Source of the DNA: Polyangiales bacterium
GTDB lineage: Bacteria; Myxococcota_A; Polyangia; Polyangiales; Ga0077539
Reading direction: 5' to 3'
Assembly (NCBI GenBank): GCA_044229975.1
Contig: JBGARZ010000016.1
Coordinates: 64,001 to 128,000 of the forward strand
Length of the DNA stretch: 64,000 nucleotides
The notes under the pieces are model-generated. The model was given only the letters and a program-made list of their open reading frames with translations, made no database searches and was not told where the DNA came from. The translations under genes were made by a program, and so were the position numbers. Below are positions 15,519 through 64,000 of this stretch, piece after piece; the stretch's first letter is position 1, and every line of letters begins with the position of its first letter.

Positions 15519-16943
<1,425 letters not shown>

Positions 16944-18122: not shown

Positions 18123-18614
18123 ATGACGGTATCGGCTCGCCTCGCCCTCGTGATGTTCCTGCTCTCGTCGGCGTCGTGCGCGACGCTCACCTTCGCCCAG
18201 GAGGACGCGGCAGCGGACGCGGCGGCAGAGGCGGGAGCCGACGTGGGCTGCACCGCCGACACCAACACCGATCCCATGAACTGCGGCGCGTGCGGTCGGG
18301 TCTGCGCGACGCCGCGCGGCACGACGCGAAACACCTGCGAGATGGGGGTCTGCGTCCCGGTGTGCGCGTCGCAGTTCGGTAGCTGTGATGGCAACCCGAC
18401 CAACGGGTGCGAGGCCGAGCTCAACACGGAAGACCACTGCGGGGCGTGCGAGACGGTCTGCCTGTCGTCCCAGGTCTGCCGCCCGCCGCCGCCGCCCGAC
18501 ACCGCCGGGGCGTTGCGCTGCGTGATGTGCGGCCGTCGCGGCATCGCGTGTTGCCAGGCCCCCAACCAGTGCGAGGCGGGCCTCCGGTGCGACGGGATGA
18601 ACTGCGTGATGTGA
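18123..18614 (+). CDS. Small Cys-rich exported protein / possible lipoprotein
   Basis: Hydrophobic N-terminus ending SASC; DPMNCGACG and CDGNPTNGCE myxobacterial Cys motifs. Confidence 0.75.
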   Translation: MTVSARLALVMFLLSSASCATLTFAQEDAAADAAAEAGADVGCTADTNTDPMNCGACGRVCATPRGTTRNTCEMGVCVPVCASQFGSCDGNPTNGCEAELNTEDHCGACETVCLSSQVCRPPPPPDTAGALRCVMCGRRGIACCQAPNQCEAGLRCDGMNCVM

Positions 18615-25571: not shown

Positions 25572-28500
25572 TCAGGGAAGCGGCGAGCGCGCGACGAGGC
25601 GCAGGGCGGACTCGCCGGTCGACATGATCAGGGTGTCGACGCCGTCGAAGGCGAGGCCCGCGACGAAGAACCCGTCGTCGTAGTCGTAGCTCCCGAGGGC
25701 CGTGCTGGTGCCGCCCGCGAAGGGCAGCGAGAACAGCCGGTCGCCCGACGAGTCGGCGAGGTAGTAGAGGCTGCGGACGTTGTCGACGGCGACGCCGTCG
25801 AAGGACACGCCGCTGCCCGTGAAGAGCGTCGACACCACGGCCCCGGCGGTCACGATCTTCACCGTGCTGCCGGCCACGACGACGGCGGTGTTGTTCGGGG
25901 TGAACGCGATGTCCGACCCGGTGCCGACGATGGTGGCGAAGTTGGTCACCGCCGCCGTGGCGGGGTTGACCATCCGCAGCTCGGCGAACTGCCCGACCAC
26001 CGCGATGAAGTCCCCGAAGGTGCTGAAGCCCGACGGGACGATCGCGATGGCGTTGGGCGCCCCCGAGATGGTCACGAGCAGCGACGAGGCGCCGGTCGAC
26101 GGGTTGATGGCGTAGAGCCCGCCCGTGTCGCTCACGGCGTAGATGGTGTTGCGCGCGACGTGGAAGGCCACGCTGAGCAGGCGGCCGCCGACGCCGCTGG
26201 CGACGACGCGCTGCGAGCCGTCGGTGCGCGACACCGAGATCACCTGACCCGACTGGGTGCCGAAGATCAGGTTGCCCAGGTTGTCGAAGGCCAGGTCGTT
26301 GTAGCTGCCCGGCGTGCCCGCGATGTCGATCGGGAAGAAGCGCGCCGGGAAGGGCAGCGCCACCGTCTGGCAGCGGGCCATGTTGCAGACCTGGCCGGCC
26401 GTGCAGCGAGTGCCGCAGGCGCCGCAGTTGTTGGGGTCGTAGCTGGTGTCGACGCACAGGCCGCTGCACGCGGTCTGACCCGTCGCGCAGTTGGCCTGGC
26501 AGGCGCCGGCCACGCAGACCTGCACGCCGGGGCACGCGGTGCCGCAGGCGTTGCAGTTGGCGCGGTCGGTCTGGAGGTCGCGGCAGGTGCCCGAGCACGC
26601 GGTCAGGCCCGTCGGGCACGACAGCACGCACGAACCCGCGGTGCACACCCGCCCGGAGGCGCAGACGGTGGTGCAGGTGCCGCAACGGTCGCGGTCGGTC
26701 TGGAGGTCGCGGCACACGCCCGAGCAGTTGGTCTGCCCCGGCGGGCACGACACCTGGCAGGCGCCCGCCACGCAGAGCTGGCCCGCCGCGCACGCGGTGT
26801 TGCACGCGCCGCAGTGGGCCCGGTCGGTCTGCACGTCGCGGCAGGCGCCCGCGCAGAACACCTGTCCGCCGCCGCACGTCGGCGCGCACACGCCGCCCGA
26901 GCACACCTCGCCGCTGGCGCAGGTGCGCGCGCACACGCCGCAGTTGGCGCGGTCGGTCTGGAGGTCGCGGCAGACGCCCGAGCACTCGTTGAGGCCCGCG
27001 CCGCACGACACCTGGCAGGTGCCTGCCGAGCACACCTGACCCGAGGCGCACGCGTTGCCGCACGCGCCGCAGTGGGCGCGGTCGGTGAGCAGGTCACGGC
27101 ACGCGCCCGCGCAGGCCGTCTGCGAGGACGCGCACGACAGGGCGCACACACCCGCGGTGCACACCTGGCCGGTCGCGCAGGCGTTGCCGCACGCGCCGCA
27201 GTTGGCGCGGTCGGTCTGGAGGTCGCGGCACACGCCCGAGCAGGCCGTCGAACCCGACCCGCACGAGACGGTGCAGACGCCCGCGACGCACACCGAGCCC
27301 GCCGCGCAGGCGTTGCCGCAGGCGTTGCAGTTGGCGCGGTCGGTCTGCAGGTCGCGGCACACGCCCGAGCACACCGTCGTGCCCGCGACGCAGCTCACCT
27401 GGCAGACGCCCGCGGAGCAGACCTGGCCCGCGGTGCAGGTCGTCCCGCACGCGCCGCAGTTGGCGCGGTCGGTCTGGAGATCGCGGCAGACGCCCGAGCA
27501 CTCCGACGTCCCGGAGACGCACGAGACCTGGCAGGTTCCGCCCGAGCAGAGCCGCCCCGGGGCGCAGGCGTTGCCGCACGCGCCGCAGTGACCGCGATCG
27601 GTCTGGAGGTCGCGGCAGATGCCCGAGCACTCCGTCGTGCCGCCCGCGCAGCTCACCTGGCAGACGCCCGCGGAGCACACCTGGCCCGCGGCGCAGGTCG
27701 TCCCGCACGCGCCGCAGTTGGCGCGATCGGTCTGGAGGTCACGGCAGGTGCCCGAGCACTCCGTCGTGCCCGCGCCGCAGGAGACCGAACACACCCCCGC
27801 GGTGCACACCGCGCCCGGGGCGCAGGCGTTGCCACACGCGTTGCAGTTGGCGCGGTCGGTCTGGAGGTCGCGGCAGACGCCGCTGCAGTCGGTGGTTCCG
27901 CCGCCGCAGGAGGTCTGGCACGAGCCCGCCGAACAAACCTGTCCAGCCGCACACGCCGTCCCGCAGACGCCGCAGTTGGCGCGGTCGGTCTGGAGGTCGC
28001 GGCAGAGCCCCGAGCAGTCGGTGGTTCCGCCGCCGCACGAGGTCTGGCAGGTGCCGCCCGAGCACACCTGGCCGGCGGCGCAGGTCGTCCCGCACGCGCC
28101 GCAGTTGGCGCGATCGGTCTGGAGGTCACGGCAGACGCCGGTGCAGTCGGTGGTTCCGCCGCCGCACGAGGTCTGGCACGAGCCCGTCGAGCACACCTGG
28201 CCCGCGGCGCACGCGTTGCCGCAGGCGCCGCAGTGGGCGCGGTCGGTCTGCACGTCGCGACACGAGCCCGAGCAGTTGGTCTCGCTGCTGCCGCAGTTCA
28301 CGACGCAGCTCCCGCCCGTGCACACCTGACCCGCGGGGCACGCGTTGCCGCACGAGCCGCAGTTGGCGCGGTCGGTCTGGGTGTTGGCGCAGAAGCGCTC
28401 CGCCCCGCCGTCGACGCCGGCGTCGGACGAGCCGCTGCACAGCGCGAGGGTGGGGCCGCACTCCAGCCCGCAGCGACCGGCGGCGCACACCTGCCCGGTG

Positions 28501-28841
28501 CCGCACGCGGTGCCGCACGCGCCGCAGTTGGCGCGGTCGGTGTCGGTCGACACGCAGCGGTTGCCGCAGAGGACCTGCCCATCGGGGCACGACACCCGGC
28601 ACGCGCCGGCGACGCAGACCTGGGTGCGCGGGCAAGAAGTGCCGCAGCTCCCGCAGTTGGTGGGGTCCTCCTGGAGGTTGGCGCACGCGCCGCCACAGGC
28701 GACCTGCGGGGACGAACACTGGACGTCGCGAGGAACGTCCATGCCGCCCGCGTCGTTGCCGCCGACGACGCTCGGGCCGCTGGTACAGCCCGCGAGCGCG
28801 AAGAGCGCGGCAAATAAGACGTATTGGTGAAGTCGTGTCAT
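25572..28841 (-). CDS. Cys-rich repeat lipoprotein (18 x ~43-aa MXAN_6577-like repeats) with C-terminal beta-propeller
   Basis: GGAGG RBS; lipobox ALAGC; repeat SCxxGxTxCSGxCRDLQTDRANCGACGxxCxxGQVCxxGxC; propeller blades DLAFD, DIAFT, GLAFD. Confidence 0.88.
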   Translation of the reverse strand: MTRLHQYVLFAALFALAGCTSGPSVVGGNDAGGMDVPRDVQCSSPQVACGGACANLQEDPTNCGSCGTSCPRTQVCVAGACRVSCPDGQVLCGNRCVSTDTDRANCGACGTACGTGQVCAAGRCGLECGPTLALCSGSSDAGVDGGAERFCANTQTDRANCGSCGNACPAGQVCTGGSCVVNCGSSETNCSGSCRDVQTDRAHCGACGNACAAGQVCSTGSCQTSCGGGTTDCTGVCRDLQTDRANCGACGTTCAAGQVCSGGTCQTSCGGGTTDCSGLCRDLQTDRANCGVCGTACAAGQVCSAGSCQTSCGGGTTDCSGVCRDLQTDRANCNACGNACAPGAVCTAGVCSVSCGAGTTECSGTCRDLQTDRANCGACGTTCAAGQVCSAGVCQVSCAGGTTECSGICRDLQTDRGHCGACGNACAPGRLCSGGTCQVSCVSGTSECSGVCRDLQTDRANCGACGTTCTAGQVCSAGVCQVSCVAGTTVCSGVCRDLQTDRANCNACGNACAAGSVCVAGVCTVSCGSGSTACSGVCRDLQTDRANCGACGNACATGQVCTAGVCALSCASSQTACAGACRDLLTDRAHCGACGNACASGQVCSAGTCQVSCGAGLNECSGVCRDLQTDRANCGVCARTCASGEVCSGGVCAPTCGGGQVFCAGACRDVQTDRAHCGACNTACAAGQLCVAGACQVSCPPGQTNCSGVCRDLQTDRDRCGTCTTVCASGRVCTAGSCVLSCPTGLTACSGTCRDLQTDRANCNACGTACPGVQVCVAGACQANCATGQTACSGLCVDTSYDPNNCGACGTRCTAGQVCNMARCQTVALPFPARFFPIDIAGTPGSYNDLAFDNLGNLIFGTQSGQVISVSRTDGSQRVVASGVGGRLLSVAFHVARNTIYAVSDTGGLYAINPSTGASSLLVTISGAPNAIAIVPSGFSTFGDFIAVVGQFAELRMVNPATAAVTNFATIVGTGSDIAFTPNNTAVVVAGSTVKIVTAGAVVSTLFTGSGVSFDGVAVDNVRSLYYLADSSGDRLFSLPFAGGTSTALGSYDYDDGFFVAGLAFDGVDTLIMSTGESALRLVARSPLP
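26365..28720 (-). repeat. Intragenic tandem array, ~129-bp unit x 18
   Basis: Counted in the translation; GCGCGGTCGGTCTGGAGGTCGCGGCA recurs on the + strand. Confidence 0.9.
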
Positions 28842-37240: not shown

Positions 37241-39940
37241 TCAGGGGAAGCCGACGACCTGCGTGGGTAGGCAACCGTCGCCGCAGGTCCCGTCTCCCGC
37301 CTGTCCCCGGACGGTGTTGCCCCAGCAGGCGACGGTCGCGTCGGAGAGGACGGCGCAGACATGATCCAGGCCGGCCTGCACGCGCACCGCTGGCCGCGAT
37401 AGCGCGACGGGCTCCGGCATCAACCGACGCACGATGTCACCGGCGCCGAGCTGGCCCGCGTCGTTGCGGCCCCAGCAGTACACCGCTCCGCTTTCGGTGC
37501 GAGCGCAACTGAAGGCGATGCCTACCGCGACCTCGACGACTCCCAACAGGCCCGCCACCACCACCGGGGTGGAGCGGGTCATCGTCGTGTTGTCCCCGAG
37601 CGCACCATCGATGTTCGACCCCCAGCACCGAACCGAACGATCGCCCATCACGGCACACGCGTGGTCATCCGCCGCGTCGAGGTCCAACGCCCCGGAGATC
37701 CCGGATACCGCGCCTGGAATGTTGCGGCTGACGGTCGTGCCGTTGCCGAGCGTTCTGGAGCTGTTGGCCCCCCAGCACAGCACCCTCCCGTCGGCGCCCC
37801 TCGCACAGTTGTAGTCGCGCCCGGACCCCAACTGGGCAGCGTCCGTCAGGCCCATCACCGCCACCGGCTCGGAGGCGTAGGCGGAACTGCCGTTGCCGAC
37901 CTGACCGAGTTCGTTGCCGCCCCAGCACTGCACCGTCCCCGCCGCGAAGCGCGCGCAGACGTTCCTCTGCCCGTGCGTCAACTGAACCGCTCCAGGCACA
38001 CGATCGACCCGTTCGGGCACCGGGCGGATGGACCCCGCAAGCGAGGTGAGAAGGCTGAAGTCGTTGTCGCCCCAGCACCAGATCGACCCGTCTCGGCGGC
38101 GTGCGCAGCTCCGGTCGCCGCCGAGGAAGACCTGGTCGACCTCGTCGATGCCGACGGCCGCCACGGGGGTCGCCCGCGGCACGGTGGTCGCGTCTCCCAG
38201 CTCTCCGAAATGGTTGTCGCCCCAGCAGCGCACTCCGCCGTCGGCGAGGACGGCGCACGTGTGGCGCGCCGAGGCGTCGAGCCCGACGACGTTGCGGAGC
38301 CCGACGACCGCGACCGGCGTGGCGCGTATCGCGTTCGACCCGTCGCCGAGGCGCCCGCTGGCCGAGGTACCCCAGCAACGCAGCGAGCTGTCCCCCAGTC
38401 GCGCGCAGACCGACCTCGCGCCCGAGCTGACGTCGACGACCCCGGCAAGGCCCGGCACCGCCGCGGGCAGCCCGCGCTCGGCAGCAAGACCGTTTCCGAG
38501 CTGGCCGTGGGTGTTGTTTCCCCAGCAGTGGACGGAACCGTCCGCTCGGCGCGCGCAGTTGTGCGCTCCTCCCGCCGTGAGCTGCACGACCCCGGACAGT
38601 CCCTCGACCGGTACGGGTCGGTCGGAAGGCGTGCTGCCGGTCCGCCCAAGTCGGCCGTCGAGGTTGCTGCCCCAGCACCGGACGGTGCCGTCGACCAGTC
38701 GAGCGCAGGTGTGGTCTGACCCAAGCGCGAGCTCGGCCGCAGGGGGGAGACCCACGACCGCAACCGGCGCGTGGCGGAGCGTCCGGGTGCCGTCGCCGAC
38801 CTCCCCGACCGTGTTCGAACCCCAGCACCAGACGGAGCCGTCGGCGCGCCGGGCGCAGGTATGGTCCGAACCCGCGCGGACCTCGACCACCTCCGTGAGC
38901 CCGGCGACCACGGCCACATCGTCGGTATCCCCCGGCACGCCGCGACCGAGCTGGCCCTGACCGTTGCTCCCCCAACACCGGACGGTGCCGTCGACCAGTC
39001 GAGCGCAAGTGTGGTTGTCACCCGCGCTGATGGCCGAGACCCCGGAGAGGCCCGGAACCACCCTCGCAACCCGCGCCGCCGTGGGGCGGTTGCTGCCGAG
39101 TTGATTGTAGTTGTTGCGCCCCCAACAGCGAACCGTGCCATCCGCGACGCGGGCGCAGGTATGGTTGCCGCCAGCGTTGATCTCCACGACCGCCGTGAGC
39201 GAGACCACGGGCACCGGCGTGAGCCGTTCGGTGGCGGCGGTGTTGTCCCCGAGCTGCCCGTCGACGTTGGCGCCCCAGCACCGCGCCGTGCCGCCCCGCA
39301 GGACGGCGCAGGCGTGACTGCCTCCGACCGAGATCTGCTCGACCACGACGGCCGGGCGGCAGCGCCCCAGCTCGCAGATCTGGTCCGCCCCGCACGCACC
39401 GCCGCATGCGGTCGAGTCGGGCTGCGTCGCCGCATCTGTTGGAGGTGGGGGTTGGTCTGAAAGGGGTAGATCCGGCGGCGATGGGGCGTCGGTGGTGGCG
39501 TCCTCCATGGCGTCAGTGCGGAGGACATCGACCGCGGGGACATCGATCGCGGGGACATCGACCGCGGGGACATCGACCGCGGGGACGTCGACCGTGGGGA
39601 CGTCGACCGTGGGGACGTCGACCGTGGGGACGTCGTCTTGCGCGTCGGGGTGATCGCCCATCGGCGTGACTGCGTCGGTCGCGACGAGTCCGCTGTCGGG
39701 GAGCGCGGAGTCGAGGGAAGGCACGAGGATGTCCTCCTCGCTCGGACGTGAATCGCGCTGCTCTTGAGGGGTATCGGGAAGCGCAACCGCGGAATCGATC
39801 GAAGGCGTCGCGTCTTCGTTTGGTCTTTCCTCATCGAGGACGAGGACGTCGTTGGTGGAGGGCGACACCGTCGCAGTCGGAGCGCAACCGCACCAGACGA
39901 CCAGAAGCGCGCACCACCCAAGCCCCGCCCCTCTCACCAT
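37241..39940 (-). CDS. RCC1-repeat exported protein / probable lipoprotein
   Basis: About 14 repeats of GxxHTCA..DGTVRCWGxNxxGQLG; hydrophobic N-terminus with Cys; acidic linker. Confidence 0.9.
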   Translation of the reverse strand: MVRGAGLGWCALLVVWCGCAPTATVSPSTNDVLVLDEERPNEDATPSIDSAVALPDTPQEQRDSRPSEEDILVPSLDSALPDSGLVATDAVTPMGDHPDAQDDVPTVDVPTVDVPTVDVPAVDVPAVDVPAIDVPAVDVLRTDAMEDATTDAPSPPDLPLSDQPPPPTDAATQPDSTACGGACGADQICELGRCRPAVVVEQISVGGSHACAVLRGGTARCWGANVDGQLGDNTAATERLTPVPVVSLTAVVEINAGGNHTCARVADGTVRCWGRNNYNQLGSNRPTAARVARVVPGLSGVSAISAGDNHTCARLVDGTVRCWGSNGQGQLGRGVPGDTDDVAVVAGLTEVVEVRAGSDHTCARRADGSVWCWGSNTVGEVGDGTRTLRHAPVAVVGLPPAAELALGSDHTCARLVDGTVRCWGSNLDGRLGRTGSTPSDRPVPVEGLSGVVQLTAGGAHNCARRADGSVHCWGNNTHGQLGNGLAAERGLPAAVPGLAGVVDVSSGARSVCARLGDSSLRCWGTSASGRLGDGSNAIRATPVAVVGLRNVVGLDASARHTCAVLADGGVRCWGDNHFGELGDATTVPRATPVAAVGIDEVDQVFLGGDRSCARRRDGSIWCWGDNDFSLLTSLAGSIRPVPERVDRVPGAVQLTHGQRNVCARFAAGTVQCWGGNELGQVGNGSSAYASEPVAVMGLTDAAQLGSGRDYNCARGADGRVLCWGANSSRTLGNGTTVSRNIPGAVSGISGALDLDAADDHACAVMGDRSVRCWGSNIDGALGDNTTMTRSTPVVVAGLLGVVEVAVGIAFSCARTESGAVYCWGRNDAGQLGAGDIVRRLMPEPVALSRPAVRVQAGLDHVCAVLSDATVACWGNTVRGQAGDGTCGDGCLPTQVVGFP
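39524..39635 (-). repeat. 15-bp tandem repeat x 7 encoding VDVP(T/A)
   Basis: GAC(A/G)TCGACCG(C/T)GGG units read directly. Confidence 0.9.
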
Positions 39941-52682: not shown

Positions 52683-55600
52683 TCAGGGACCGAGTGCGCC
52701 GGCGGCGACCCAGCGGTTGAGCGCGTCGACCGCGGCGGCGTTGCAGAGCAAGGGCGGGCGCGGAGTTTCCTGGGGCATGCGCCCGCTCGTGGGGTTCACC
52801 CACCGAAGGATGGACGCTGACGGGCTGATGATCGGCGATGCTGATGGGTTGGCGGGGGTGATCCACCCTCGGTTGTGGAGGGCGACGTACAGGCTCTCGG
52901 CTGTGCTGCCGAAGCCGCCGTGGGTGTGAAGGTGACAGGACTGGCATCGCCCCTCGGTGCCCGGGCCCAGGTAGCGCGTGTAGATATCGGTCCACGTCGG
53001 TCCGGGGCCGGTGTACGCACCGGCGTGCGGGGGGCATGAGCTGGTGCACGCACTCGCGGGCGGGGTGGAGTTTGACGCGCGTGGCGTCGGCAAGAGCCCG
53101 TACACCGCGACCTCATTCGCCTGTGTCCCCACGTAGACGCGCCCTCCGGCCACCGTGATCGGCGGCGAACGAAGCACACCCGGGGCAGGGTTCGGCACCG
53201 TGAGCTGGTCGGACAGGTGCACCGCGCTCGAGTAGATGGGCCCGGCGCCGAGGTTCGCCGCATCGTACGCGAGGAGGCCCGTCCGGCCCGCGCAGCTCGG
53301 GACGAAGGCCCAGAGCACGCCCGTGTGCAACAGTGCTCCGTTGGAGGAGATGCTCAGGGTGCTTCGATTGACCCCGAAGTTGGCCGACGGGTCTTCCTCC
53401 GCCAGCTGGATCGTGTCCCCTGCGATCGTGTACGCGCGCAGGTGATGATCGCTCGTCCAGAGGTAGAAGCGCGACGGACCGAAGGGTGGCGTCCACCAGG
53501 CTGGGCCGGCGAAGAGGGCGCCGACGCCGCCCACGCCCGTCGGGGGGTACGTGCTCACGGCGCCCGCGTTGTCGGTCGAGAGGCCGCCCAGCGCGTCGCG
53601 CCGCAGGAGGTAGAGCACACCTCCCTTTCCGCCCACGAGCAGGCGATCGCTCCCGGGGATGAGCATCGGCCCCGCCGAGCCGAGGTCGCCGTCGCTGTCA
53701 TCAAGCTCCGGGTACTCGTAGGGCTGAAACCAGCTCTGCACGGCCAGGGAGCCGCCCGCGCGCCGCCCGACGCGCAGCACGGCATTGCTGAAGCTCGTGC
53801 TCGACGACGCGGGGCCACCCTCGAAGCTCGCCAGGAAGTCCATCCGATCGAGCACCCCCATCGAGTTGCCCATCGCGAAGTACAGGTCGCCGCTCCCGGT
53901 GCTCGCCGGACCGTTGCCGTACTGCCAGATGCCACCGCCCTGGCCGTAGGCGTCCACGATGCAGTTGTTGAGCGAGCCCGTCGCGTTGCCCGGACCAACG
54001 GGCACGTGGTTCCAGCAGATGGTGCCAGCACTGAGGCGCGGCGACGGCGACCCCGACGGCGTCGTGACCATCGCGCCCGTCTGGGCGAGCGTCCCCGCGT
54101 CGTAGGAGATGAGCCAGCCGTGATAGGGCGTCAGGTCGCAGTGGCCGCCGAAGGTGATGTGTACCTGCCCGTCCTGCAGGAGAAGCGCTGGGCGCTGCAG
54201 TTGGTAGGTCGCGTCGAAGACCACCCTCCCCATCACGTTGCCCGTGCTGGCCCGAGGGTCGGTGAACCATGGGTCGTCCGGGGCGCTGACGTCCGTGCGG
54301 GTCGCGATGCGTGCGTTGCCCGCGACCGAGGCTTCGATGCGAACGGGGCTGCCGGGCCGCTCGACGCCTGTGACCAGGTCCACCGCGTGGAGGTGGTACT
54401 CGGGGTTCGGTTGGGGCGTTGCGTCCGCCGACCCTGGGACGCTCTTCACCGTGAAGTACATGGTGCGCCGCGACAGGTCGATGACCGGCGTGCTCACGAT
54501 GCCGACGTTGTCCTCCAGGTCTCCGCACCAGTAGTAACGGCGCCGATCGACGGGTGCGCCAAGGTCGGAGCGTGACCAGTAGAGCCGACGGTCTTCCGCG
54601 TCGAAGGCATAGACCCGGTTGTTGAGCGTCGCGACGTACACCACGTCGCGCCCGCCGATGGCTCCCTGCACATAGAGTGGTTGCGCGATCACCGCACCCT
54701 GCACCGGCAGCGCGCCGAGCCGCCCGAAGGTGCTGGGGCTGACGTTTGCCACGGTCAGCGCGGTCTCGCGGAGGTTCGCTCCCGTGCGTAGCGTGTCGTT
54801 GCGTTGGGTGAGCACGTTGACCGCGTAGCGGCCGAAGCCCACGACGGGCTCGACCTGCGCGCGCGACTCCGCCACGGTGTCGTCCCCGAGCTGCCCGAAG
54901 TCGTTGGCGCCAAACGACCACACCCGACCGTCGGCGGTGGTCGCGAGCGAGTGCGCGCCCCCAGCGGCAATGGCAACCACCGCGCTCAGGCCACCAATCT
55001 GCGCGGGGGTCGGGTGCGGGGCGCTCCCCGTGCGGCCGGTGATCGGCTCCAGGACGAGCTGACCGCTGCCCCCTTCGCCCCAGCCCCAGAGCGTTCCGTC
55101 CGCGCGGCGCGCCAGGCTGTGCGCGTCGCCCGCAGCGATCGCGGTCACGCCCGTGAGCGTCATGATGCGCCGGGGCGTGAGGCGGTCCACCGTGCTCCCG
55201 TCGCCCAACTGTCCGGCGGCGTTGCTGCCCCAGGCCCACACGCTCCCGTCGCTCCCGCGCGCGAGGCTGTAACGTCCGCCCGCCACGATGCTGGCGATGA
55301 CCGGCAACCCGCCGACCATCGCAGGCGTGGCGCGCTCCGTGGTGGTCCCGTCGCCGAGCTGGCCCGAGTCGTTGTCCCCCCAAGCCCACACGGCACCGTT
55401 GTCATCGAGCGCGAGTGAGTGGGCGCCGCCCGCCGCGACCGCCCGCACGACGCCCGGCCCCGGCACCCGCGCCGGCGTGAGCCGCGTGCCCCGCTCGACC
55501 TGCCCAAGCTGCCCGTGCGCGTCGGAGCCCCACGAGAAGAGCTCGCCGGTCTGGGTGACCGCGAGCGCGTGAGCGCCGCCCGCGGCGATGCGGACCGCAT

Positions 55601-58600
55601 CGGTGAGCCCCGTCACCACCGCGGGGAGCGAGTGGCGCGTCGTGGTGCCGTCGCCGAGCTCTCCCGCAGCGTTGTCCCCCCACGCGACGACGCGCCCACT
55701 GCCTTGCACTGCGAGGGCGAAGGTCCCGCCCACCGCGACGTCGAACACGTTCGCGACGCCTTCGACCGGGCCCGCCACGTGGTGCTCCGTCGCGGGCGCG
55801 CCGACGCCGTCTCCCTGGAGGTCGTAGCCGATGGTCCACAGCCGCCCGTCGCTCGCGAGCACGAAGCTCTCGGCAGGGCCCGCGGCGACCTTCTCTGCGA
55901 ACGAGATGCTCGCCCCCACGCAGCGCCCGGCGTAGCAGGCGTCGTTGCGCGTCAGCCCGTCGTGGTCGTCGCAGGTGGTCCCGTCCGCCTTGGCGATGCA
56001 GCGGCCGGTGCCCGGGTCGCAGGTGGCGCCGTGACACCCTCCCTCGGAGCACACCAGAGGGGCGCCCGCCACGCAGGCTCCGCCGATGCACGCGTCGCCG
56101 TGGGTGCACGCGTCCCCATCGTCGCAGGCTGCGCCGTCGAGCGCGCGCGTGTCCGCGGGGCAGGCGGAAGACACGCCGTCGCACACCTCCTCCGCGTCGC
56201 AGGCGCCCGCCGCGGGGCGGCAGGTGGTCGGACCCCCGCAGCGGCCGCTCGTCGACGTCACCGAGTAGCTCCAGGTCGCCTCCGCGCCGGGGTAGCTCGA
56301 CGCGCAGATGGTGGCCGTCCCCCATGTGCGCGCCGTACAGCTGCAACGCGAGCCCAGGCCGCAGGCGTCGTCGCTCTGGCATACGCAGTCGCCGTCCACG
56401 CGGAGCCACGGGTCGCCCGTAAACGAGTCGCAGGTGGAGATCGTGTAGGTCTGCCCCGCCTCGACCGTGAAGGTGTAGGTGGCGAGGCACTCGCCCAGGG
56501 TCGCCGCGGTGCCGCTGCCGGCGAGCCCGGACGGGCACTGCGCGGTCGGGATCAGACGATCGCTCGGGCAGAGCGGGTTCATCCCGTCGCACACCTCCGC
56601 CAGATCGCACGCGGCGGTCGCCGCTCGACACTCCGTCCCCGCTGGGAGGATCGACTCCACTAGGCACATCGCCCGCCCCTCGGAGCACGCCTGCCCGCCC
56701 TGGAAGCACCCGGCGGGGACGGTGCACGGGCCGCCCGGCTGCAGCTCGCAGCCGTCGCTCGGGTCGCCGTTGCAGTCGACCCAGCCCGCGTCGCAGCTCG
56801 CCACCCGGCACGCGCCCATCGCGCAGCCCGCGGTCGCGTGGGGGAGCGCGCATGCGCGGCCGCACAGCCCGCAGTGATCTGCTGTCGCGCGCAGGTCGGT
56901 CTCACACCCGTTGGCGGGCGCGCCGTCGCAGTCGCCGCGGCCGGGGTTGCAGAACGCTCCGCAGGTGGCCTCGCCGCACGCGCGGATCGCCTCGGCGCCG
57001 ACCGCGGGGCACACGCTCCCGCAGGCCCCGCAGTGGTCGGGGTTGGAGCGAAGGTCGACGCAGCGCCCGCCGCAGAGCGTGTCAGGCGTCGCGCACGCGG
57101 TGGCGCACGAGCCCATGGTGCAGTACCGACCGGCGCCGCAGGCGCGGCCGCAGTCGCCGCAGTTCGCCGGGTCGTGCTGCAGGTCGACGCAGCGCCCGCC
57201 GCAGGTACCCTGGTCCGGGCCGCAGGTGACCGCGCAGACGCCTTCGACGCACGCGTTGCCCGCGCCGCAGCGCACGCCGCAGCCACCGCAATTGCCGTTG
57301 TCGCGGAGCGGGACGGCGCAGTACGGCCCCGCGCCGAGGTCGCAGCGCACCGAGTCCGCCCCGCAAGCCACTCCGCACGCGCCGGCCGCGCAGAGCTGGC
57401 CCGCGGGGCACGCGCGGCCGCACGCGCCGCAGTGGTTGGGGTCGTTCTGCAGGTCGGCGCAGCGGGCGAGCGCGCCGGCGCCGCAGGTCGTGAGCCCGGC
57501 GCCGCATGCGCTCCCGCAGAGGCCCTCGCTGCACAGCTGGCCCGCGGGGCAGGCGTTGCCGCAGGTCCCGCAGTTCGCGGGGTCGTAGCGTGGGTCAACG
57601 CAGGCGGCGCCGCAGCGCACGGTGGGGGCGCCGCATGAGGTCGCGCACGCGCCGTTGGAGCACGCCTGGCCCGCGGGGCAGGCGTTGCCACAGCGGCCGC
57701 AGTTGGCGTTGTCCGTCGCGGCGTTGGCGCAGTACGCGCTGGGGCCGCGGCCGCAGGTCGTCATGCCGACGCCGCAGGTGGTGACGCACCCGCCCGCCGC
57801 GCACACCTGCCCCGGTGCGCACGCCGCCCCGCAGGCGCCGCAGTTGACGTTGTCGGACTGGAGGTTGGCGCAGGAGGCGACGCCACCGCGGGTGCAGGTC
57901 GTCAGGCCCGCGCCGCACGCCGCCTGGCACGTCCCGCGAGAGCACACGAGGGAGGACGAGCACGAGCGTCCGCAGGCGCCGCAGTGGTTGCGGTCGGCGC
58001 TGAGGTCGCGGCACGTGCCGTTGCACGAAGTCTCGCCCGCGCACCACGTCACGAAGGGCGTGACGTGCGTCTTGAAGGTGAGCGCCGCGCCGGGGACGTC
58101 CGCGTCACCGATCGTGTGCGCGCCGCCCGCGTAGGTGCTCAGCGGGTTGACGCCCGCGCTCACGGTGGCGGCGAGGTTGGTGCACTGCGCCGCCGTGGTA
58201 CACGCGACCGCGGGCGCGTTGCTGCATCGGCGCGTGCTGTTGGGGCACGTCCCCGTGGTCGTCGCGCCGGTCGCGGTGACGACGAAGCGGAGCCGACGGC
58301 CCGCGGTGATGGGAACACACGACGCGCCGAGGTCGAAGACCGCCCGCGCCCGTGCTGTGGAGGTGAGCGACGGGGGGAAGCGCGGGCATGACCCGTTGGT
58401 GACCGCGGTGTTCGGGAGCGTCGCGGTCGCGAGCGTCTGGTCGCGCTCGTCGAAGACCGTGAGCTGAACCATGGAGCCTGCGAGGAGCGCGCCCCCGCAG
58501 GTGGTGAGCGACACCTCGACGCCCGAGAGGAAGCCGGTGCGGCCCACGGTGAAGCGTTGCCCCGCGCCCGTCGCGAGCGTGAGGCCCACGCGCGCCGCGG

Positions 58601-59204
58601 TCGTCGCGGAGCTCACGAGCTCGGACTGGTCGATGACGGCTGTGGTGTTGGTCGCGGTACCGAGCGCGCACACGGCCGGGAGCGCGCAGGCCCCCGAGGT
58701 GCAAACGTCTCCCTCGGAGCAGACCCGGCCGCAGGCGCCGCAGTTGAACGGGTCGGACATGACGTCGCGACACGCGCCGCTCCCGCAGGCCGTGAGGTGC
58801 GACGCGCAGCTCGGCGCGCAGGCTCCGTCGGTGCACACCTCGCCGAGGCTGCATGCGTGGCCGCAACCGCCGCAGTGGACGGGGTCGGAGCGGAGGTCGT
58901 GGCATGAGCCGTCCGAGGCGCAGTGCGTGAGTCCGAGCCCGCAGGACCGCGCGCACGAGCCGCGGGAGCACACCTCCGTCGCCGAGCACGCGCGGTTGCA
59001 CGCGCCGCAGTGAGCCCGGTCGGACGTGAGGTCGCGGCAGACGTCCGTGCAGGTGAGCGACGGGAGCGCGCACCCGCCCGTAATGGGCTGGCGGCTCGAC
59101 GCGGAGGGCGTCGCGGCGGGGTCGTCACCCTGACAGCTCGCGGCGAGCGCGGCGACAAGCCAGAGGGAAAGGGCGACGAAGGCTCGGGGAGGTTGCGTGC
59201 GCAT
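52683..59204 (-). CDS. Giant multidomain lipoprotein: Cys-rich repeats, disintegrin-like motifs, RCC1 repeats, PQQ-like propeller, C-terminal CxxCH heme-c domain
   Basis: Lipobox LAASC; DxxNCGxC repeats; WGxNxxGQLG repeats; [54 protein letters not shown]. Confidence 0.85.
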
Positions 59205-59230
59205 GAGGGACTTCTCCACGCAGGCCGCTC

Positions 59231-59246
59231 AGCACCGGGCGTGCCG
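59231..59246 (-). promoter_or_regulatory. Sigma54 promoter candidate for the giant lipoprotein
   Basis: Minus strand CGGCACGCCCGGTGCT (GG-N10-GC), just upstream of the GGAG RBS. Confidence 0.6.
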
Positions 59247-59303
59247 CTATGGCCGCATCGTGCAGGCCGCGTTGCCCACGAGCCGGTTCGACATCCACGC
59301 CAC

Positions 59304-59321
59304 GCAGCGTTGCAGCGCTGC
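59304..59321. promoter_or_regulatory. Near-perfect palindrome, candidate activator-binding site
   Basis: GCAGCGTTGCAGCGCTGC, roughly midway between the two divergent sigma54 motifs. Confidence 0.4.
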
Positions 59322-59367
59322 TACGGTCCGGGGCGCCTACGCCCCTCACATCGTCGGGAAAGCCACG

Positions 59368-59383
59368 CGGCACGGCGGCTGCT
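59368..59383 (+). promoter_or_regulatory. Sigma54 promoter candidate for the downstream lipoprotein
   Basis: CGGCACGGCGGCTGCT (GG-N10-GC), 49 bp before ATG 59433. Confidence 0.65.
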
Positions 59384-59432
59384 GTCCGCCTCTGGTCACG
59401 AGCGCATCAGTGCGCTCAGGAGAGCTGAGGCG

Positions 59433-60266
59433 ATGAAGATCACGAAGGATGGACTCGGTGTGTTCGGGGTGTTGGCCGTGACGTGCGCGCTCGGCTGCGG
59501 CGGGAGCGACAGCGCCCCCCCGAGGCCGGGGGACGGCGGGGTGAGCGGCGACACCGGCGGTGGCGCCCTGACGCCGACCGCGAACATCGGCACGATCTGC
59601 AGCCGTTCGCGGAGCCAGGGCTGCACCACGTCGAGCACCTGCGAGGCTGAGCTGTCCGCGACGCTCTCCGGCGCACCCGCGGCGTGCCGGACGCTGATCG
59701 AGGGGTACCTCTCTTGCGCGGCTCGCTCGCAGGGGAGCACCTGCGAGATGATCAGCGGCGGGGTCTTCGCGGGCTGTCAGTCCATGATGGCCCCGATCGA
59801 GAGCTGCACCGCGAGCAACAGCGGCGATGCCGCGACGGCGCCGACCCTCCCGACCCCGAGCGAGCTGATGGCTCCCACGGACGTCGCGCTCTCGTTCGAG
59901 CGCGCGGGGATGACCACGCAGACGACCGAGGGCACCGCCTACTTCGGAACGCCGCCCGTCGGCGCGCCGGCCGGGGGGCAGCAGTTCGTGTTCACGTCGG
60001 AAGCCTTCCCCAGTGGCAGCAGCCGCGCCAACTGTACGGTGGGCTTCTCGTTCGCCAGCGGGCAGTACACCTTCAACAACGACGCTGTTCTGACGCAGCC
60101 GTGTGAGATCCGTGCCTTCGACGACACCGTGAGCACGCTGACGTTCACCGGCGCGCGTTTGAGCCTCGCGCCGGCGGGCAATGTGCTCGTGCGCCTGGAG
60201 GCGACACTCTCGGGGGCCCTCGGGGCCGGTCCAGTCACGGTGCAGGTGACCTACTCCCCCCGGTGA
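59433..60266 (+). CDS. Hypothetical lipoprotein
   Basis: GGAG/GAGG RBS; lipobox ALGC; Cys-rich helical N-terminal part and beta-rich C-terminal part. Confidence 0.78.
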   Translation: MKITKDGLGVFGVLAVTCALGCGGSDSAPPRPGDGGVSGDTGGGALTPTANIGTICSRSRSQGCTTSSTCEAELSATLSGAPAACRTLIEGYLSCAARSQGSTCEMISGGVFAGCQSMMAPIESCTASNSGDAATAPTLPTPSELMAPTDVALSFERAGMTTQTTEGTAYFGTPPVGAPAGGQQFVFTSEAFPSGSSRANCTVGFSFASGQYTFNNDAVLTQPCEIRAFDDTVSTLTFTGARLSLAPAGNVLVRLEATLSGALGAGPVTVQVTYSPR

Positions 60267-60410
60267 CCGGCGTCCGCCCCTCCCATCGACGCGGCCGCGG
60301 CGCCCGACGACCGTAACAACGATGTCTCGCTGCGTGGCGTGGGCGCGACACTCTTGCGGAAGAATTGGCCACGATGACAGACTATCGCTCGCCGCCGCCA
60401 CGGCGGAACG

Positions 60411-61832
60411 ATGAGCGAGATCGCTTCTCCACAAGCACCACCATCGGGGCGCCTCTCCACACTCGTGGCAGAGCGCTATGAGATCGTTCGCGAACTCGGG
60501 CGCGGGGGCATGGGCTCGGTGTACGAAGCCCGCCACACTTGGACGGGGCGCAAGGTGGCGCTCAAGACCCTCCTCACACACCTCGCGAGCGAGCCGAGCG
60601 CAGTGGAGCGCTTCCGGCGCGAGGCGCGCGCGGGGGTGGTGGGCGCCCATCCCAACATCGCCGAGGTGCTCGACATGGGCGTCGACCCCCGCGACGGCAC
60701 CCTGTACCTCGCGCTCGAACTGCTCGATGGCGAAGACCTTGCGCGTCGCCTCGGGCGCGACCGCTCGCTGACACCCCATGAGGCCCTTGCGCTGCTGGTG
60801 CCTGCCATGATTGCGCTCGACGCGGCCCATCGCGCGGGGGTGATCCACCGCGACATCAAACCCAGCAACCTCTTCGTGGCCCGCAGCGCCGACGGGTCGT
60901 CCCGGCTGAAGGTCATCGACTTCGGCATCGCCAACCTCGCCGACGCCGCCCCGCTGACCCGCTCTGGCGCCCCCATGGGCACCCCGCAGTACATGGCCCC
61001 CGAACAGGCGCGCGGCGAGAGCGACCTCGACGCGCGCGCGGACGTCTGGTCGATGGGCGTGGTCTGCTTCGAGGTGCTCGCGGGCCGTCGCCCCTTCGAG
61101 GGCGCGCGCTACCACGACGTCCTGGTGCAGGTGCTCACCGCGCGCCCACCGTCGCTACGGAGCGTGTCGCCGCACCTCGACAGCGACCTCTGCGCCGTCG
61201 TCGATCGCGCGCTCGAACCCGAGCGCGGGCGTCGCACCCCGACGATGGCCGCGATGGCCGCGGCACTTGCTGCACTCCCCGCGTTCGCGGCCGAGCCCTG
61301 GGCCGTCGCCCTCCGACCCACGGCGGCGCCGCAGCCCGATGCCACCGCGGCGGTCGCGGCGCAGGAGGGGCCGGTCACGCTGGAGCTGCAACCTGACGAG
61401 GCTGTCGTGGGCTCCGCGTCCGACGCGAGCCTGCCCCCGTCGTGGGCGCCCGCGACCCCCTCCGTGACCCCGCCCACGACCGCCCGTCGTCGCGGTTGGC
61501 GCTGGGCTGTCGTCGTCGCGTTCGGGCTCTCGCTGGCCGTCGGCTTCTCGCTCCAGGCGGCGCGAAGTCGGAGCGACGGGCCCGCGCGCCCGCCCCGGCG
61601 TCTCGTCGCGTCTGCGCCTCCGGTCGCGCCGCGCACCCGACCCCCATCCCAACCCCTGCCGCCCCTGCCCCCTGCCTCGCTGCCCGCGTCCCGCCCGCCC
61701 GTCGCCGCCGCGCCGCCGCCGACCCGGCTCGGGCTCCCTTCTGACCCTCGGCGAGCCGTGGTGCGGCGGGCCGTGCGCGTGGAGCGGGAGCCGGAGGCGC
61801 CCGTCAATGGTGCGCCGGTGCTCGATCCGTGA
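60411..61832 (+). CDS. Membrane Ser/Thr protein kinase with Pro-rich extracytoplasmic tail
   Basis: GRGGMGSVY, VALK, HRDIKPSN, DFG, GTPQYMAPE; TM; ends NGAPVLDP. Confidence 0.93.
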   Translation: MSEIASPQAPPSGRLSTLVAERYEIVRELGRGGMGSVYEARHTWTGRKVALKTLLTHLASEPSAVERFRREARAGVVGAHPNIAEVLDMGVDPRDGTLYLALELLDGEDLARRLGRDRSLTPHEALALLVPAMIALDAAHRAGVIHRDIKPSNLFVARSADGSSRLKVIDFGIANLADAAPLTRSGAPMGTPQYMAPEQARGESDLDARADVWSMGVVCFEVLAGRRPFEGARYHDVLVQVLTARPPSLRSVSPHLDSDLCAVVDRALEPERGRRTPTMAAMAAALAALPAFAAEPWAVALRPTAAPQPDATAAVAAQEGPVTLELQPDEAVVGSASDASLPPSWAPATPSVTPPTTARRRGWRWAVVVAFGLSLAVGFSLQAARSRSDGPARPPRRLVASAPPVAPRTRPPSQPLPPLPPASLPASRPPVAAAPPPTRLGLPSDPRRAVVRRAVRVEREPEAPVNGAPVLDP

Positions 61833-62842
61833 GGGGCGCGTGGGCGTTGGCGTGCCTTCTCGCGTCGGGCACCCTCGGGGCGCAGCCGCTGCCAGGAGAC
61901 GCGTTGGAGGCGCGCCTGCGACGCGGGGTGGAGCTTCGGCGGGCCGGACAGGACGAGGCGGCATTCGCGGAGTTCGAGGCCGCCCACGCGCTCCGGGCCG
62001 AGCCGCGCACGGCCGCCCAGCTCGCTCTGGTGTGCCAGGCCACGGGGCGTTGGATTCGGGCCGAGGTGCTGCTCCGGGAGGCGCTCGCGGCGCCCGACGA
62101 CGGGTGGGTGCGGCGCAACCGCGTGGCTCTCCAGGGAGCGCTCGCGGTGGCCGAGCGACACCTCGCCACCCTGGAAGTCGTGGGTGGAGCCGTCGAGCAG
62201 GAGGCTCACGCGCAGGTGCGCCTCAACGACGAGGCCGTGGGGACGCTCCCACTCCCGGGGCCCGTGCGGGTGCTTGCTGGAGCGACGGCCCTGGAGGTGC
62301 GGGCCGAGGGCTTCGTCCCCTTCGTGCGGCGCTTCGAGATCGCGCCCGGCGAGCGGGTTCGCGAGCGCGTGAGCCTCGTGCCGTGGCGGCCGGTCACGCC
62401 AGAGCCCCCGAGGGTGCCAGTCGAACCCGTCCCGTCGGTGCCTCCGCCCTCTCTCGCGCCGCCCGTCATGCGCGTGGCGCCCCCGGTCGTCTCCTCGCGA
62501 GGGGAGCCGTCGTCCCTCGCGCCGTGGGGCGGTCTCGCGCTCGGGAGCTTCATCGGGGCGGGCCTGGTTCTCGGGGTCGGAGCGGCAGCGCTCGTCGTGC
62601 GGGAGGAGGCGGTGGCGTCCTTCAACCGTGAGTGCGAGCGAGGTGCGACGGCGGGAGATTGCGGCTCCTGGCGAGACCGGACGGCCTTCAGCGGGGGCGT
62701 CGCAGTGACCGCGCTGCCCGTGGGGCTGATCCTGTCAGCGGCGGGGACATACTTCATGGTGCGGCGTGCTCGGCAGGTGTCGGCCGTCCGCGTCGCCGTC
62801 ACCGGGCGCGCGTTCGTGGTCCAGTGTGCCTGGCGCTTCTGA
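61829..62842 (+). CDS. Exported TPR + PEGA-like protein
   Basis: GTGA-coupled to the kinase; signal peptide; TPR helices; LEVRAEGF PEGA-like motif; Gly-rich helices; terminal WRF. Confidence 0.82.
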   Translation: MRGAWALACLLASGTLGAQPLPGDALEARLRRGVELRRAGQDEAAFAEFEAAHALRAEPRTAAQLALVCQATGRWIRAEVLLREALAAPDDGWVRRNRVALQGALAVAERHLATLEVVGGAVEQEAHAQVRLNDEAVGTLPLPGPVRVLAGATALEVRAEGFVPFVRRFEIAPGERVRERVSLVPWRPVTPEPPRVPVEPVPSVPPPSLAPPVMRVAPPVVSSRGEPSSLAPWGGLALGSFIGAGLVLGVGAAALVVREEAVASFNRECERGATAGDCGSWRDRTAFSGGVAVTALPVGLILSAAGTYFMVRRARQVSAVRVAVTGRAFVVQCAWRF

Positions 62843-62855
62843 TACCGTCGCGCGG

Positions 62856-64000
62856 GTGGACGCCCCGGAGACCAGGCTCAATCCCGACCGCGTCACATCT
62901 CGGCACGTCCGTCGCTTCGTGGTCCGTGTGGTGGCCGGGCCCGACGAAGGAGCCGAGCGACAGTCTGATGGCACCCGCCTATCCATCGGATCCGCCGAAG
63001 ACGCCACCCTGCGACTCAGTGACCCGTATGTGAGCCGTTATCACATCGAGGTCGAGGCCACCGACGAGGGCGTCACCGTGCGCGACCTCGGCAGCCGAAA
63101 CGGCACCCGGGCGGGCGCGCTGCAGGTGCGCGAGGCGAGCCTGCGTGGCGAGGTGGAGTTCGCGCTCGGGCGCACGCGCGTCCTCGTGGTGCCGGGCGGC
63201 GACGCGGTGGAGGTTCCGCTGAGCGCGCGCGGGGCCTTCGGGCGCCTCGTGGGCGCCTCGCGGCCCATGCGAGAGGTGTACGCGACGCTGGAGCGCGCGG
63301 CCTGCACGACGGTGCCGGTGCTCCTCGGCGGCGAGTCAGGCACGGGCAAGGAGCTCGCGGCCCGGTCGCTGCACGAGGCGTCGTTGCGCCGCGACGAGGC
63401 CTTCGAGGTCATCGACTGCGGCGCCCTCCCGCCGACCCTCATCGAGGCCGAGCTCTTCGGCTACGAGCGCGGGGCCTTCACGGGCGCCCGCGACGCCCAC
63501 CCGGGCGCCTTCGAGCGGGCCGACAAGGGCACGGTCTTCCTCGATGAGCTCGGCGAGCTCCCCCTCGACCTGCAGCCCAAGCTGCTGCGCGTGCTGAGCG
63601 AGGGCGAGGTGCGCCGCCTGGGCGCCACCAAGGCCCGCAAGGTTGACGTGCGCGTGGTGGCCGCGACCAACCGCGACCTGCGCCGGGAGGTCAACGACAA
63701 GCGCTTTCGCCTCGACCTGTACTACCGCCTGGCCGTCGTGCGGGTGCAGATGCCCTCGCTGCGCGAGCGCCTCGACGACCTCCCGGCGCTGGTCGAGCAC
63801 CTCGCCGCCGCGGTCGTGCGCGAGCGGGGCGTGGCCGTGGAGGGCGCCTTCGACGAGGCCTTCTGGGGGGCCGCGCGGCAGCACCACTGGCCCGGCAACG
63901 TGCGTGAGCTTCGCAACTACATCGAGCAGTGGCTGGTGCTGCGCGTGGCCGCCCCGCTGGAGGCCACCGGCGAGGGCGCCGAGAGTTCGCCGCTCGGTGA
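62856..64000 (+). CDS. FHA-domain sigma54-dependent activator (3'-truncated by window edge; absent from ORF track)
   Basis: Translated by hand from GTG 62856: [16 protein letters not shown] (FHA), [29 protein letters not shown]. Confidence 0.93.

Follow-up and report, generated by a model that had tools for sequence, protein, structure and literature searches.

The subject of this account is a gene cluster at the right end of a 64,000-nucleotide stretch of DNA (the window) from a Polyangiales bacterium: positions 64,001 to 128,000 of contig JBGARZ010000016.1, which in our numbering is C15:64001-128000 of the 10.0 Mb, 71% GC host genome (G000). The cluster is characterized by two divergently oriented genes for predicted lipoproteins, followed on the plus strand by genes for a Ser/Thr kinase, a TPR-PEGA protein (the partner) and an FHA-domain sigma54 activator. 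The domain identities given in the first-pass annotation (Pkinase; TPR and PEGA; FHA and Sigma54_activat) are all confirmed, the PEGA domain having been assigned via the homolog P0011 and an AlphaFold2 model. Since the 7929 genes of the host genome were called with our own codon model (16% intergenic DNA), gene starts and intergenic status are approximate. The components, in window coordinates, are:

52683-59204, minus strand: giant predicted lipoprotein, 2173 aa with 151 Cys; MXAN_6577-like/Stig1 Cys-rich repeats, an RCC1 propeller, a weak PQQ-like propeller and a C-terminal CxxCH.
59246-59231, minus strand: sigma54 -24/-12 motif CGGCACG-CCCGG-TGCT with GG-N10-GC spacing; position weight matrix score 22.1; predicted start about 59220.
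59287-59304, unstranded: candidate enhancer site 1, weak dyad TTCGACA-N4-CGCCACG, its right half kept in genomes G001 and G014; tandem score 20.6.
59308-59325, unstranded: candidate enhancer site 2, CGTTGCA-N4-TGCTACG, conserved across the aligned orthologous gaps.
59368-59383, plus strand: sigma54 -24/-12 motif CGGCACG-GCGGC-TGCT with GG-N10-GC spacing; predicted start about 59394.
59433-60266, plus strand: small predicted lipoprotein, 277 aa with 12 Cys; family not recognised.
60312-60350, unstranded: second tandem dyad, upstream of the kinase operon; score 24.3, the second-best intergenic match in the genome; kept in G001.
60354-60383, plus strand: possible housekeeping-type promoter TTGCGG-N18-CAGACT abutting the dyad; by eye, both boxes are kept in G001 and CAGACT in G014.
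60411-61832, plus strand: Hanks-type Ser/Thr kinase with one predicted transmembrane segment (about residues 366-384), an outer linker rich in Pro and, at the C-terminus, the tail VNGAPVLDP (61803-61829).
61829-62842, plus strand: TPR-PEGA partner with a signal peptide, TPR 25-109, PEGA 112-181, a Pro linker, a Gly/Ala-rich hairpin with a Cys-pair loop, and a C-terminal hairpin ending in F.
62856-64000, continuing to 64196 past the window, plus strand: FHA-AAA+-HTH (helix-turn-helix) sigma54 activator with an intact GAFTGA motif and GS in place of GR in the FHA domain; start inferred from orthologs.

The 228-bp gap between the two lipoprotein genes is bounded by ATGs at 59204 (minus) and 59433 (plus), and reading the sequence bears out both sigma54 motifs, the gap and the gene order as first described; the claim that both divergent genes encode lipoproteins agrees with their lipobox-like N-termini. 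Each motif conforms to the YGGCACG...TGCW consensus with GG-N10-GC spacing upstream of a start codon, and two such motifs arose in only 1 of 20000 dinucleotide shuffles of the gap. Across the whole genome, which has one copy of rpoN, the strict motif with its N5 spacer is intergenic in 50 of 54 matches, as against 7/89, 6/40, 6/95 and 1/40 for the wrong spacers of 3, 4, 6 and 7. The sigma54 motif is thus real. The plus-strand motif has a counterpart in G001, G014 and G045, in each case before the ortholog of the small lipoprotein gene; the minus-strand motif is not present in the orthologous gaps of G001 and G014, and the back-to-back pairing of the giant and small lipoprotein genes is found in the host genome only. 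Another back-to-back pair of sigma54 motifs, at L101:16369-16514 in G019, has a single dyad at its centre and is flanked left and right by lipoprotein genes; L101 is one of the loci around relatives of the copy 1 activator (see below), a different clade, so that the layout recurs. Two further features of sigma54 promoters in this genome may be recorded here. The first is an A/T-rich patch (GGAAAG, GATTTC, GAAATC) about 10-25 bp upstream of the -24 box, repeated across GC-rich promoters of the activator clade (59357-59363 in the window), which is possibly a bending site. The second is another divergent strict pair at C17:52226-52339, with about ten such sites nearby before BON-like and metabolic genes, unrelated to FHA activators.

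Between the two promoters a palindrome had been reported at 59304-59321. It is present (16 of 18 positions), but a palindrome of this quality occurs in 9.6% of 1000 shuffles (P about 0.1) and it lies 4 bp off a conserved dyad at 59308-59325; we rejected it as the functional unit. Alignment of the gap with those of G001 and G014 reveals a conserved block overlapping the palindrome, which G045 and G019 extend. Its unit is an 18-bp dyad, CGTnRCR-N4-YGYnACG, present in tandem at 59287-59304 and 59308-59325; the centre of the tandem (59306) practically coincides with the midpoint (59307) between the two -24 boxes. In G001, G014 and G045 the dyad also precedes the ortholog of the small lipoprotein gene, and in G019 that of the giant gene. 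A matrix trained on four promoters, all from other genomes, gives four intergenic tandem matches of at least 20 in the host genome, two of which lie in this locus (59287 and 60312); the former cannot count as independent, G001 being close kin, but the latter, which is outside the training set, can. The 60312-60350 copy, overlooked in the first-pass annotation, is likely to be an autoregulatory site of the kinase operon, and the adjoining TTGCGG-N18-CAGACT element is a possible promoter of that operon; a scan of the locus for sigma70 consensus promoters and terminators found nothing.

The dyad is tied to one clade of activators. We compared 43 loci around members of this activator's clade (677 kb) with a control set of 186 sigma54 sites from the rest of the host genome; the clade loci come from one family and several are orthologous, and because they are kin the p-values are overstated. 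The clade loci contain 41 intergenic sigma54 sites, that is 1.2 per 20 kb versus 0.37 in the rest of the genome, and 20 of the 41 stand before lipobox genes as against 29 of the 186 controls, by a loose lipobox expression that matches 1553 of the 7929 genes. With the four training or own promoters left out, 14 of 37 clade promoters score at least 10 for the dyad versus 5 of 186 controls, and among lipoprotein promoters the ratio is 12 of 18 (non-training) versus 1 of 29. De novo expectation-maximization (EM) on 20 of the 37 non-training promoters (hand-chosen strong sites, roughly one per ortholog set) returned CGTnGCG-N4-CGCnACG with a log-likelihood of 98.5, versus 41-53 for eight shuffles. 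A spacer of 4 is found at 12 of 29 strong promoters, training ones included, versus 0 of 99 controls, and no other spacer at more than 1 of 29. The sequence thus presents the conserved paired upstream sites tied to one paralog that are typical of a bacterial enhancer-binding protein (bEBP), and the activator likely binds the tandem dyad. Against these data one may set the view that GC-rich DNA has yielded the motifs by chance and that the genes are neighbours without any relation. The chance-level palindrome and the unconserved back-to-back layout speak for it; the intergenic bias, the enrichment at lipoprotein promoters, the EM motif and the spacing controls speak against it. As conservation and spacing largely refute it, we give it almost no credence.

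The kinase has the intact Gly loop, VAxK, HRDxKPxN, DFG and APE and the one predicted transmembrane segment of a Hanks-type receptor kinase; the start of the partner gene overlaps its stop. The host genome encodes 213 plain kinases, 61 TPR-PEGA proteins and 26 FHA activators. Of the TPR-PEGA genes 34 directly follow a kinase, and 45 lie within 1.2 kb of one (the 45 pairs analysed here). Co-phylogeny of the kinase and TPR-PEGA paralogs, which had been put forward as a check, gave a positive result: the trees correlate (Mantel r 0.21, p 0.0015, 45 pairs), and in 21 of the 45 pairs the nearest neighbour of the kinase is among the three nearest of the partner. The partner family is large, with 2006 clusters (50% identity) at E<1e-30, some multi-PEGA proteins included, and matches in 43 of 121 genomes of the phylum.

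The C-terminal tail of the kinase is the sole conserved stretch of an otherwise unalignable linker; among 18 NGAPxL-type tails, picked by a tail expression, the N is invariant and the A and L are near-invariant. All 10 kinases with an NGA tail have a TPR-PEGA neighbour, versus 52 of 219 kinases overall, and their partners fall in one 16-member clade (support 0.92) marked by R/Q/W positions in the TPR. When mapped on the partner tree the tail label changes 5 times (null 9.3, p 0.0003), and on the kinase tree 8 times (null 9.2, p 0.19). That the NGAPxL tail follows the partner tree and not the kinase tree suggests that it docks on the partner, where it may sit in the TPR groove. An alternative is that tail and partner co-vary through shared duplication only, with no contact, the partner being an inner-membrane or free periplasmic protein that acts otherwise. 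This would be in keeping with the overall correlation of the two trees and with the fact that the tail end directly adjoins the partner gene in 34 of the 45 pairs. However, the tail tracks the partner tree over the kinase-domain tree even in the 4 of 10 NGA-tail pairs that are divergent or reversed; it alone is conserved in the linker; and the Cys pair conserved between the hydrophobic helices of the partner fits a cytoplasmic loop poorly. Hence, we regard this alternative as improbable. Other tails seem, by eye, to cluster on the partner tree of the 45 pairs (IVIE/LVVE/IAIE; NNPFE/HNPLR; LRTHF/LDTHW; SYPGH/RGYPE), suggesting several docking codes among the tail types.

The AlphaFold2 model of the partner (pLDDT, the predicted local distance difference test score, 87) begins with five helices, followed by a PEGA sandwich, a linker and a long hairpin of helices. 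The hairpin comprises two Gly/Ala-rich hydrophobic helices; among 108 homologs its loop pair C269/C278 is kept by 103 and the terminal F by 95. On this model the hairpin may be an outer-membrane anchor with the Cys loop outside. Foldseek with the model gave no match at E<=0.001, the weaker rows being TPR- and PEGA-like only, and sequence searches of the PDB with the partner returned designed TPRs and one N-terminal stretch of a TonB-linked receptor. One weak match of the model, with E 8e-3 over 77 columns, is to chain B, of 76 residues, in the RtkS-PpkA structure 9K1U; if that chain is the periplasmic domain of PpkA and the match covers PEGA, a PEGA-like fold would be common to both relays.

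The activator has the AAA+ domain with GAFTGA and the C-terminal Fis-type HTH of a bEBP, the HTH lying past the window end. It groups with two other activators of the host, on C23 and C34 (Shimodaira-Hasegawa-like approximate likelihood ratio test 99, in a bEBP tree from a quick search), both in kinase-partner cassettes of different gene order. FHA domains that bind phosphothreonine have an Arg in a GR motif, besides S-x-x-H and N-G motifs. In this clade VSRYH (S-x-x-H) and NGT are kept, and the arginine is S or T in 26 of 26 members, which makes canonical phosphothreonine binding doubtful.

Both lipoprotein genes of the gap are likely sigma54 targets. The giant protein scores 360 bits against NF041328 (MXAN_6577-like Cys-rich; curated cut-off 100), and its residues 2087-2091, CQSCH, form a c-type heme motif after the weak PQQ-like propeller. 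In a sister cassette the gene upstream of the kinase (C23:155087-159559) encodes a 1490-aa protein paralogous to the C-terminal half of the giant. The G019 ortholog of the giant (55% over 2236 aa) has a sigma54 motif and dyad and lies 1.6 kb behind the activator ortholog. We rejected the giant as a fixed divergent partner, its C-terminal 705 aa having matches in 7 of 40 other genomes but none in G001 or G014. The small lipoprotein has no Pfam or NCBIfam match; homologs occur in 5 of 60 other genomes, and its Atlas matches are to unnamed Myxococcota clusters only, all <0.9. The window encodes other large proteins of the Cys-rich (NF041328/Stig1) or RCC1 kind, most of which begin with a lipobox-like stretch, at 11615-14869, 18123-18614, 25572-28841 and 37241-39661; the host genome has 184 NF041328 matches, and of such proteins in the window the giant alone has a strict sigma54 motif.

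The cargo genes are combined with the cassette in different ways. The order lipoprotein, kinase, partner, activator is kept in G014, with promoter and dyad; kinase, partner and activator stay together in G001 (85-94% identity), with the lipoprotein, its promoter and its dyad on a separate contig; and in G019 a DUF5122 propeller lipoprotein and the giant ortholog lie behind the activator, each with promoter and dyad. The lipoprotein that adjoins a C34-type activator in G003/G004 corresponds to C4:15244 in the host, again with a dyad (tandem score 18.4, top of the 186 controls). By these comparisons the cargo genes change place between genomes, carrying along their own promoter and enhancer, with which they can act in trans. 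This agrees with the earlier proposal of a repeated kinase/TPR-PEGA/FHA-bEBP system tied to sigma54 promoters of surface lipoproteins, whose positions shift from genome to genome. Homologs of the propeller occur in 12 of the 43 clade loci, one of them just past the window end (64211-65533, minus strand), and this DUF5122 lipoprotein, which often adjoins the cassette, is a likely input partner and sometimes also a target. Directly after the kinase-partner pair there is a lipobox gene in 21 of 34 cases, versus 20% of all genes.

Our favoured reading, held with moderate confidence, is that the locus likely forms one insulated channel in a family of systems that signal across the envelope. In it the TPR-PEGA protein, held in the outer membrane by its helical hairpin with the Cys loop outside, would engage the outer tail of the membrane kinase, the DUF5122 propeller lipoprotein being the likely input partner; the kinase would in turn switch on the FHA-sigma54 activator, and this would bind the tandem dyad centred between the two sigma54 motifs and turn on both lipoprotein genes; the dyad copy at 60312-60350 would regulate the kinase operon itself. 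Directly supported are the two promoter motifs, the conservation of the dyad and its link with the activator clade, the operon structure, the intact kinase and AAA+ motifs, and the co-variation of tail and partner. Control of this activator by this kinase is likely, and the transfer from kinase to activator is the weakest step of the model.

Several points weigh against this reading, besides the kinship of the clade loci and the loose lipobox expression given above. The best tandem match in the genome, at C2:51797, was rejected for want of a sigma54 promoter, the two matches outside the locus both being without a sigma54 site, and the strict dyad is missing at 17 of the 29 strong promoters of the clade loci. 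Near FHA activators across the whole genome sigma54 sites are not significantly enriched (5 of 26 versus 2.7, p 0.135), and a general enrichment was accordingly rejected; this lack is explained by the targets travelling with their enhancer. Of the 26 clade activators, 12 have kinase and partner both within 3.2 kb, many of the contigs being short. The remaining points concern the weakest step, and they are also what favours an account that accepts the activator with its dyad and sigma54 regulon but not its control by this kinase: the kinase, partner and lipoprotein would then be a separate unit acting on other substrates, and the activator a common neighbour in the operon whose degenerate FHA domain senses something else. 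These are the loss of the FHA arginine throughout the clade, the marginal correlation of activator and kinase trees (r 0.19, p 0.066, n 15), and the rarity of nearby activators, with an FHA activator within 4 kb in only 7 of 34 kinase-partner pairs. Yet all three clade members of the host stand in kinase-partner cassettes of differing gene order, the activator and partner trees correlate (r 0.35, p 0.008, n 13), the S-x-x-H and NGT motifs are kept, and a dyad lies upstream of the kinase operon. We consider such a separation of kinase and activator unlikely. Of all 26 FHA activators of the host, 9 have a kinase gene as well as a TPR-PEGA gene no more than 5 kb away. A sigma70-family gene, probably of the extracytoplasmic function (ECF) type, lies within 4 kb of 5 of the 34 pairs (C11:633024, C35:96147, C20:156184, C23:527105, C19:203451), and the module may thus feed other output types.

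The window contains another kinase/TPR-PEGA/FHA module, at 15519, termed copy 1, and the first-pass annotation took the two for the same cassette in a different order with different cargo. The kinases do resemble each other: they are 46% identical and have in common the rare motifs EVLDMG.DP (2 of 219 kinases) and TWT.R.VA.K (5 of 219). The copy 1 order of partner, small gene and opposite-strand activator is also found in G043. The other components, however, fall in different clades. Ranked against the proteins of the present module, the copy 1 kinase is 11th of 218, its TPR-PEGA protein 55th of 60 (score 0) and its activator 15th of 25; its partner gives no BLASTP match to the present one; its activator keeps the FHA GR motif; and its HTH and tail differ. 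There is no sigma54 site within 6 kb of copy 1 and no intergenic dyad of the CGTnRCR type. By the component ranks, the activator tree and the missing match between the partners, copy 1 was rejected as a sister cassette; the true sister cassettes are on other contigs.

A different dyad accompanies the activators related to that of copy 1. Of the 11 promoters in 24 loci of such copy-1-like activators, 6 have T(T/C)GNGC-N7-GCNC(A/G)A, from 5 loci of which 3 are orthologous, and 0 of 11 have the CGTnRCR-type dyad; conversely, the former occurs at 0 of the 41 promoters in the loci of the present activator's clade. It is not found at copy 1 itself. The two modules hence look insulated and not interchangeable, and we hold it very improbable that they are one cassette with cross-talk and freely interchangeable cargo. 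This second dyad also stands at four sigma54 promoters of the host far from any FHA activator (C14:178571, C23:51389/51409, C23:503769, C32:280842/280862), twice in tandem, 20 bp apart; these are likely a trans regulon of another paralog. Extending the favoured reading to the order is more tentative, with something short of an even chance: Polyangiales would have dozens of parallel kinase channels with a two-layer address (tail and TPR-PEGA for the input, HTH and enhancer for the sigma54 output), and lipoprotein genes that are mobile with their own promoter and enhancer yet wired to a channel.

Myxobacteria have hundreds of Ser/Thr kinases, mostly without known input or output (PMC4880591, PMC8538405). 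The locus resembles the micro-synteny described for them (Perez et al. 2008, via PMC8538405) in its expanded kinases with conserved neighbours; the part of PMC8538405 summarizing it names no PEGA partner, tail motif or enhancer. No description of the kinase/TPR-PEGA/activator module was found in the literature surveyed, and the portions seen of PMC7159879, PMC11980068, PMC2129111, PMC6213207, PMC2887360 and PMC6971385 do not mention it; its novelty may be affected by what Jelsbak 2005 and Perez 2008 and the supplements to both contain. The parts of the module are of known types; new are the two paralog-specific enhancer motifs, the likely autoregulatory site, the cargo that moves together with its enhancer, and the degenerate FHA domain.

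Among known systems, FHA-domain sigma54 enhancer-binding proteins of Myxococcus xanthus were reportedly described by Jelsbak, Givskov and Kaiser in 2005, with Ser/Thr kinases said to have been proposed to signal to them. The likeness is in the FHA-AAA+-HTH architecture with GAFTGA; compared with those proteins as reported, the present locus adds the TPR-PEGA partner, the kinase tail motif, a defined dyad and a lipoprotein regulon, and its FHA domain lacks the GR arginine. In the FecA-FecR-FecI type of cell-surface signalling a protein at the surface or in the outer membrane signals through a transducer of the inner membrane to a transcription factor of its own, which induces envelope proteins. 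The predicted logic is alike, with many insulated paralogs, but this locus uses a kinase and sigma54 instead: there is no TonB-dependent receptor, anti-sigma factor or ECF sigma among its genes, and no Sigma70_r2 match on contig C15. On the wider and more tentative reading for Polyangiales, these channels would be a parallel to cell-surface signalling built on Ser/Thr kinases, their FHA step being non-canonical.

Paired sites near sigma54 promoters (TGGCACG-N4-TTGC(T/A)) are known for bEBPs of the Nla28 type in M. xanthus; these are tandem 8-bp repeats, CT(C/G)CG(C/G)AG, often intragenic (PMC9765219), whereas in the present case inverted dyads of 18 bp stand in tandem in intergenic DNA, 20-21 bp from one another. 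There is a functional likeness to the relays of type VI secretion systems (T6SS). According to PMC6082577, RtkS binds the periplasmic part of the kinase PpkA, which phosphorylates Fha; in both RtkS-PpkA-Fha of Serratia and TagQR-PpkA-Fha1 of Pseudomonas the kinase, which crosses the membrane once, is bound on its outer side by a periplasmic partner and passes the signal to an FHA protein, and an outer-membrane component feeds in (PMC6082577, PMC10482370). The present locus differs in its transcriptional output via a sigma54 activator, its short kinase tail and its tens of paralogous copies. No Fha scaffold, PppA or T6SS genes accompany the kinase, the FHA domain being fused to a bEBP and the flanks being lipoproteins; nor was any T6SS or phosphatase gene recognised beside the cassette, with no profile scan aimed at T6SS having been made. 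By analogy the locus is predicted to work like the RtkS/TagR-PpkA-Fha relay, yet it is not a member of that system. It offers one complete testable chain, from a tail of 9 residues and a partner domain that is soluble, through an activator, to a site of 18 bp and two promoters, and the second site for another activator clade makes insulation testable by swaps and regulons readable from sequence in uncultured lineages.

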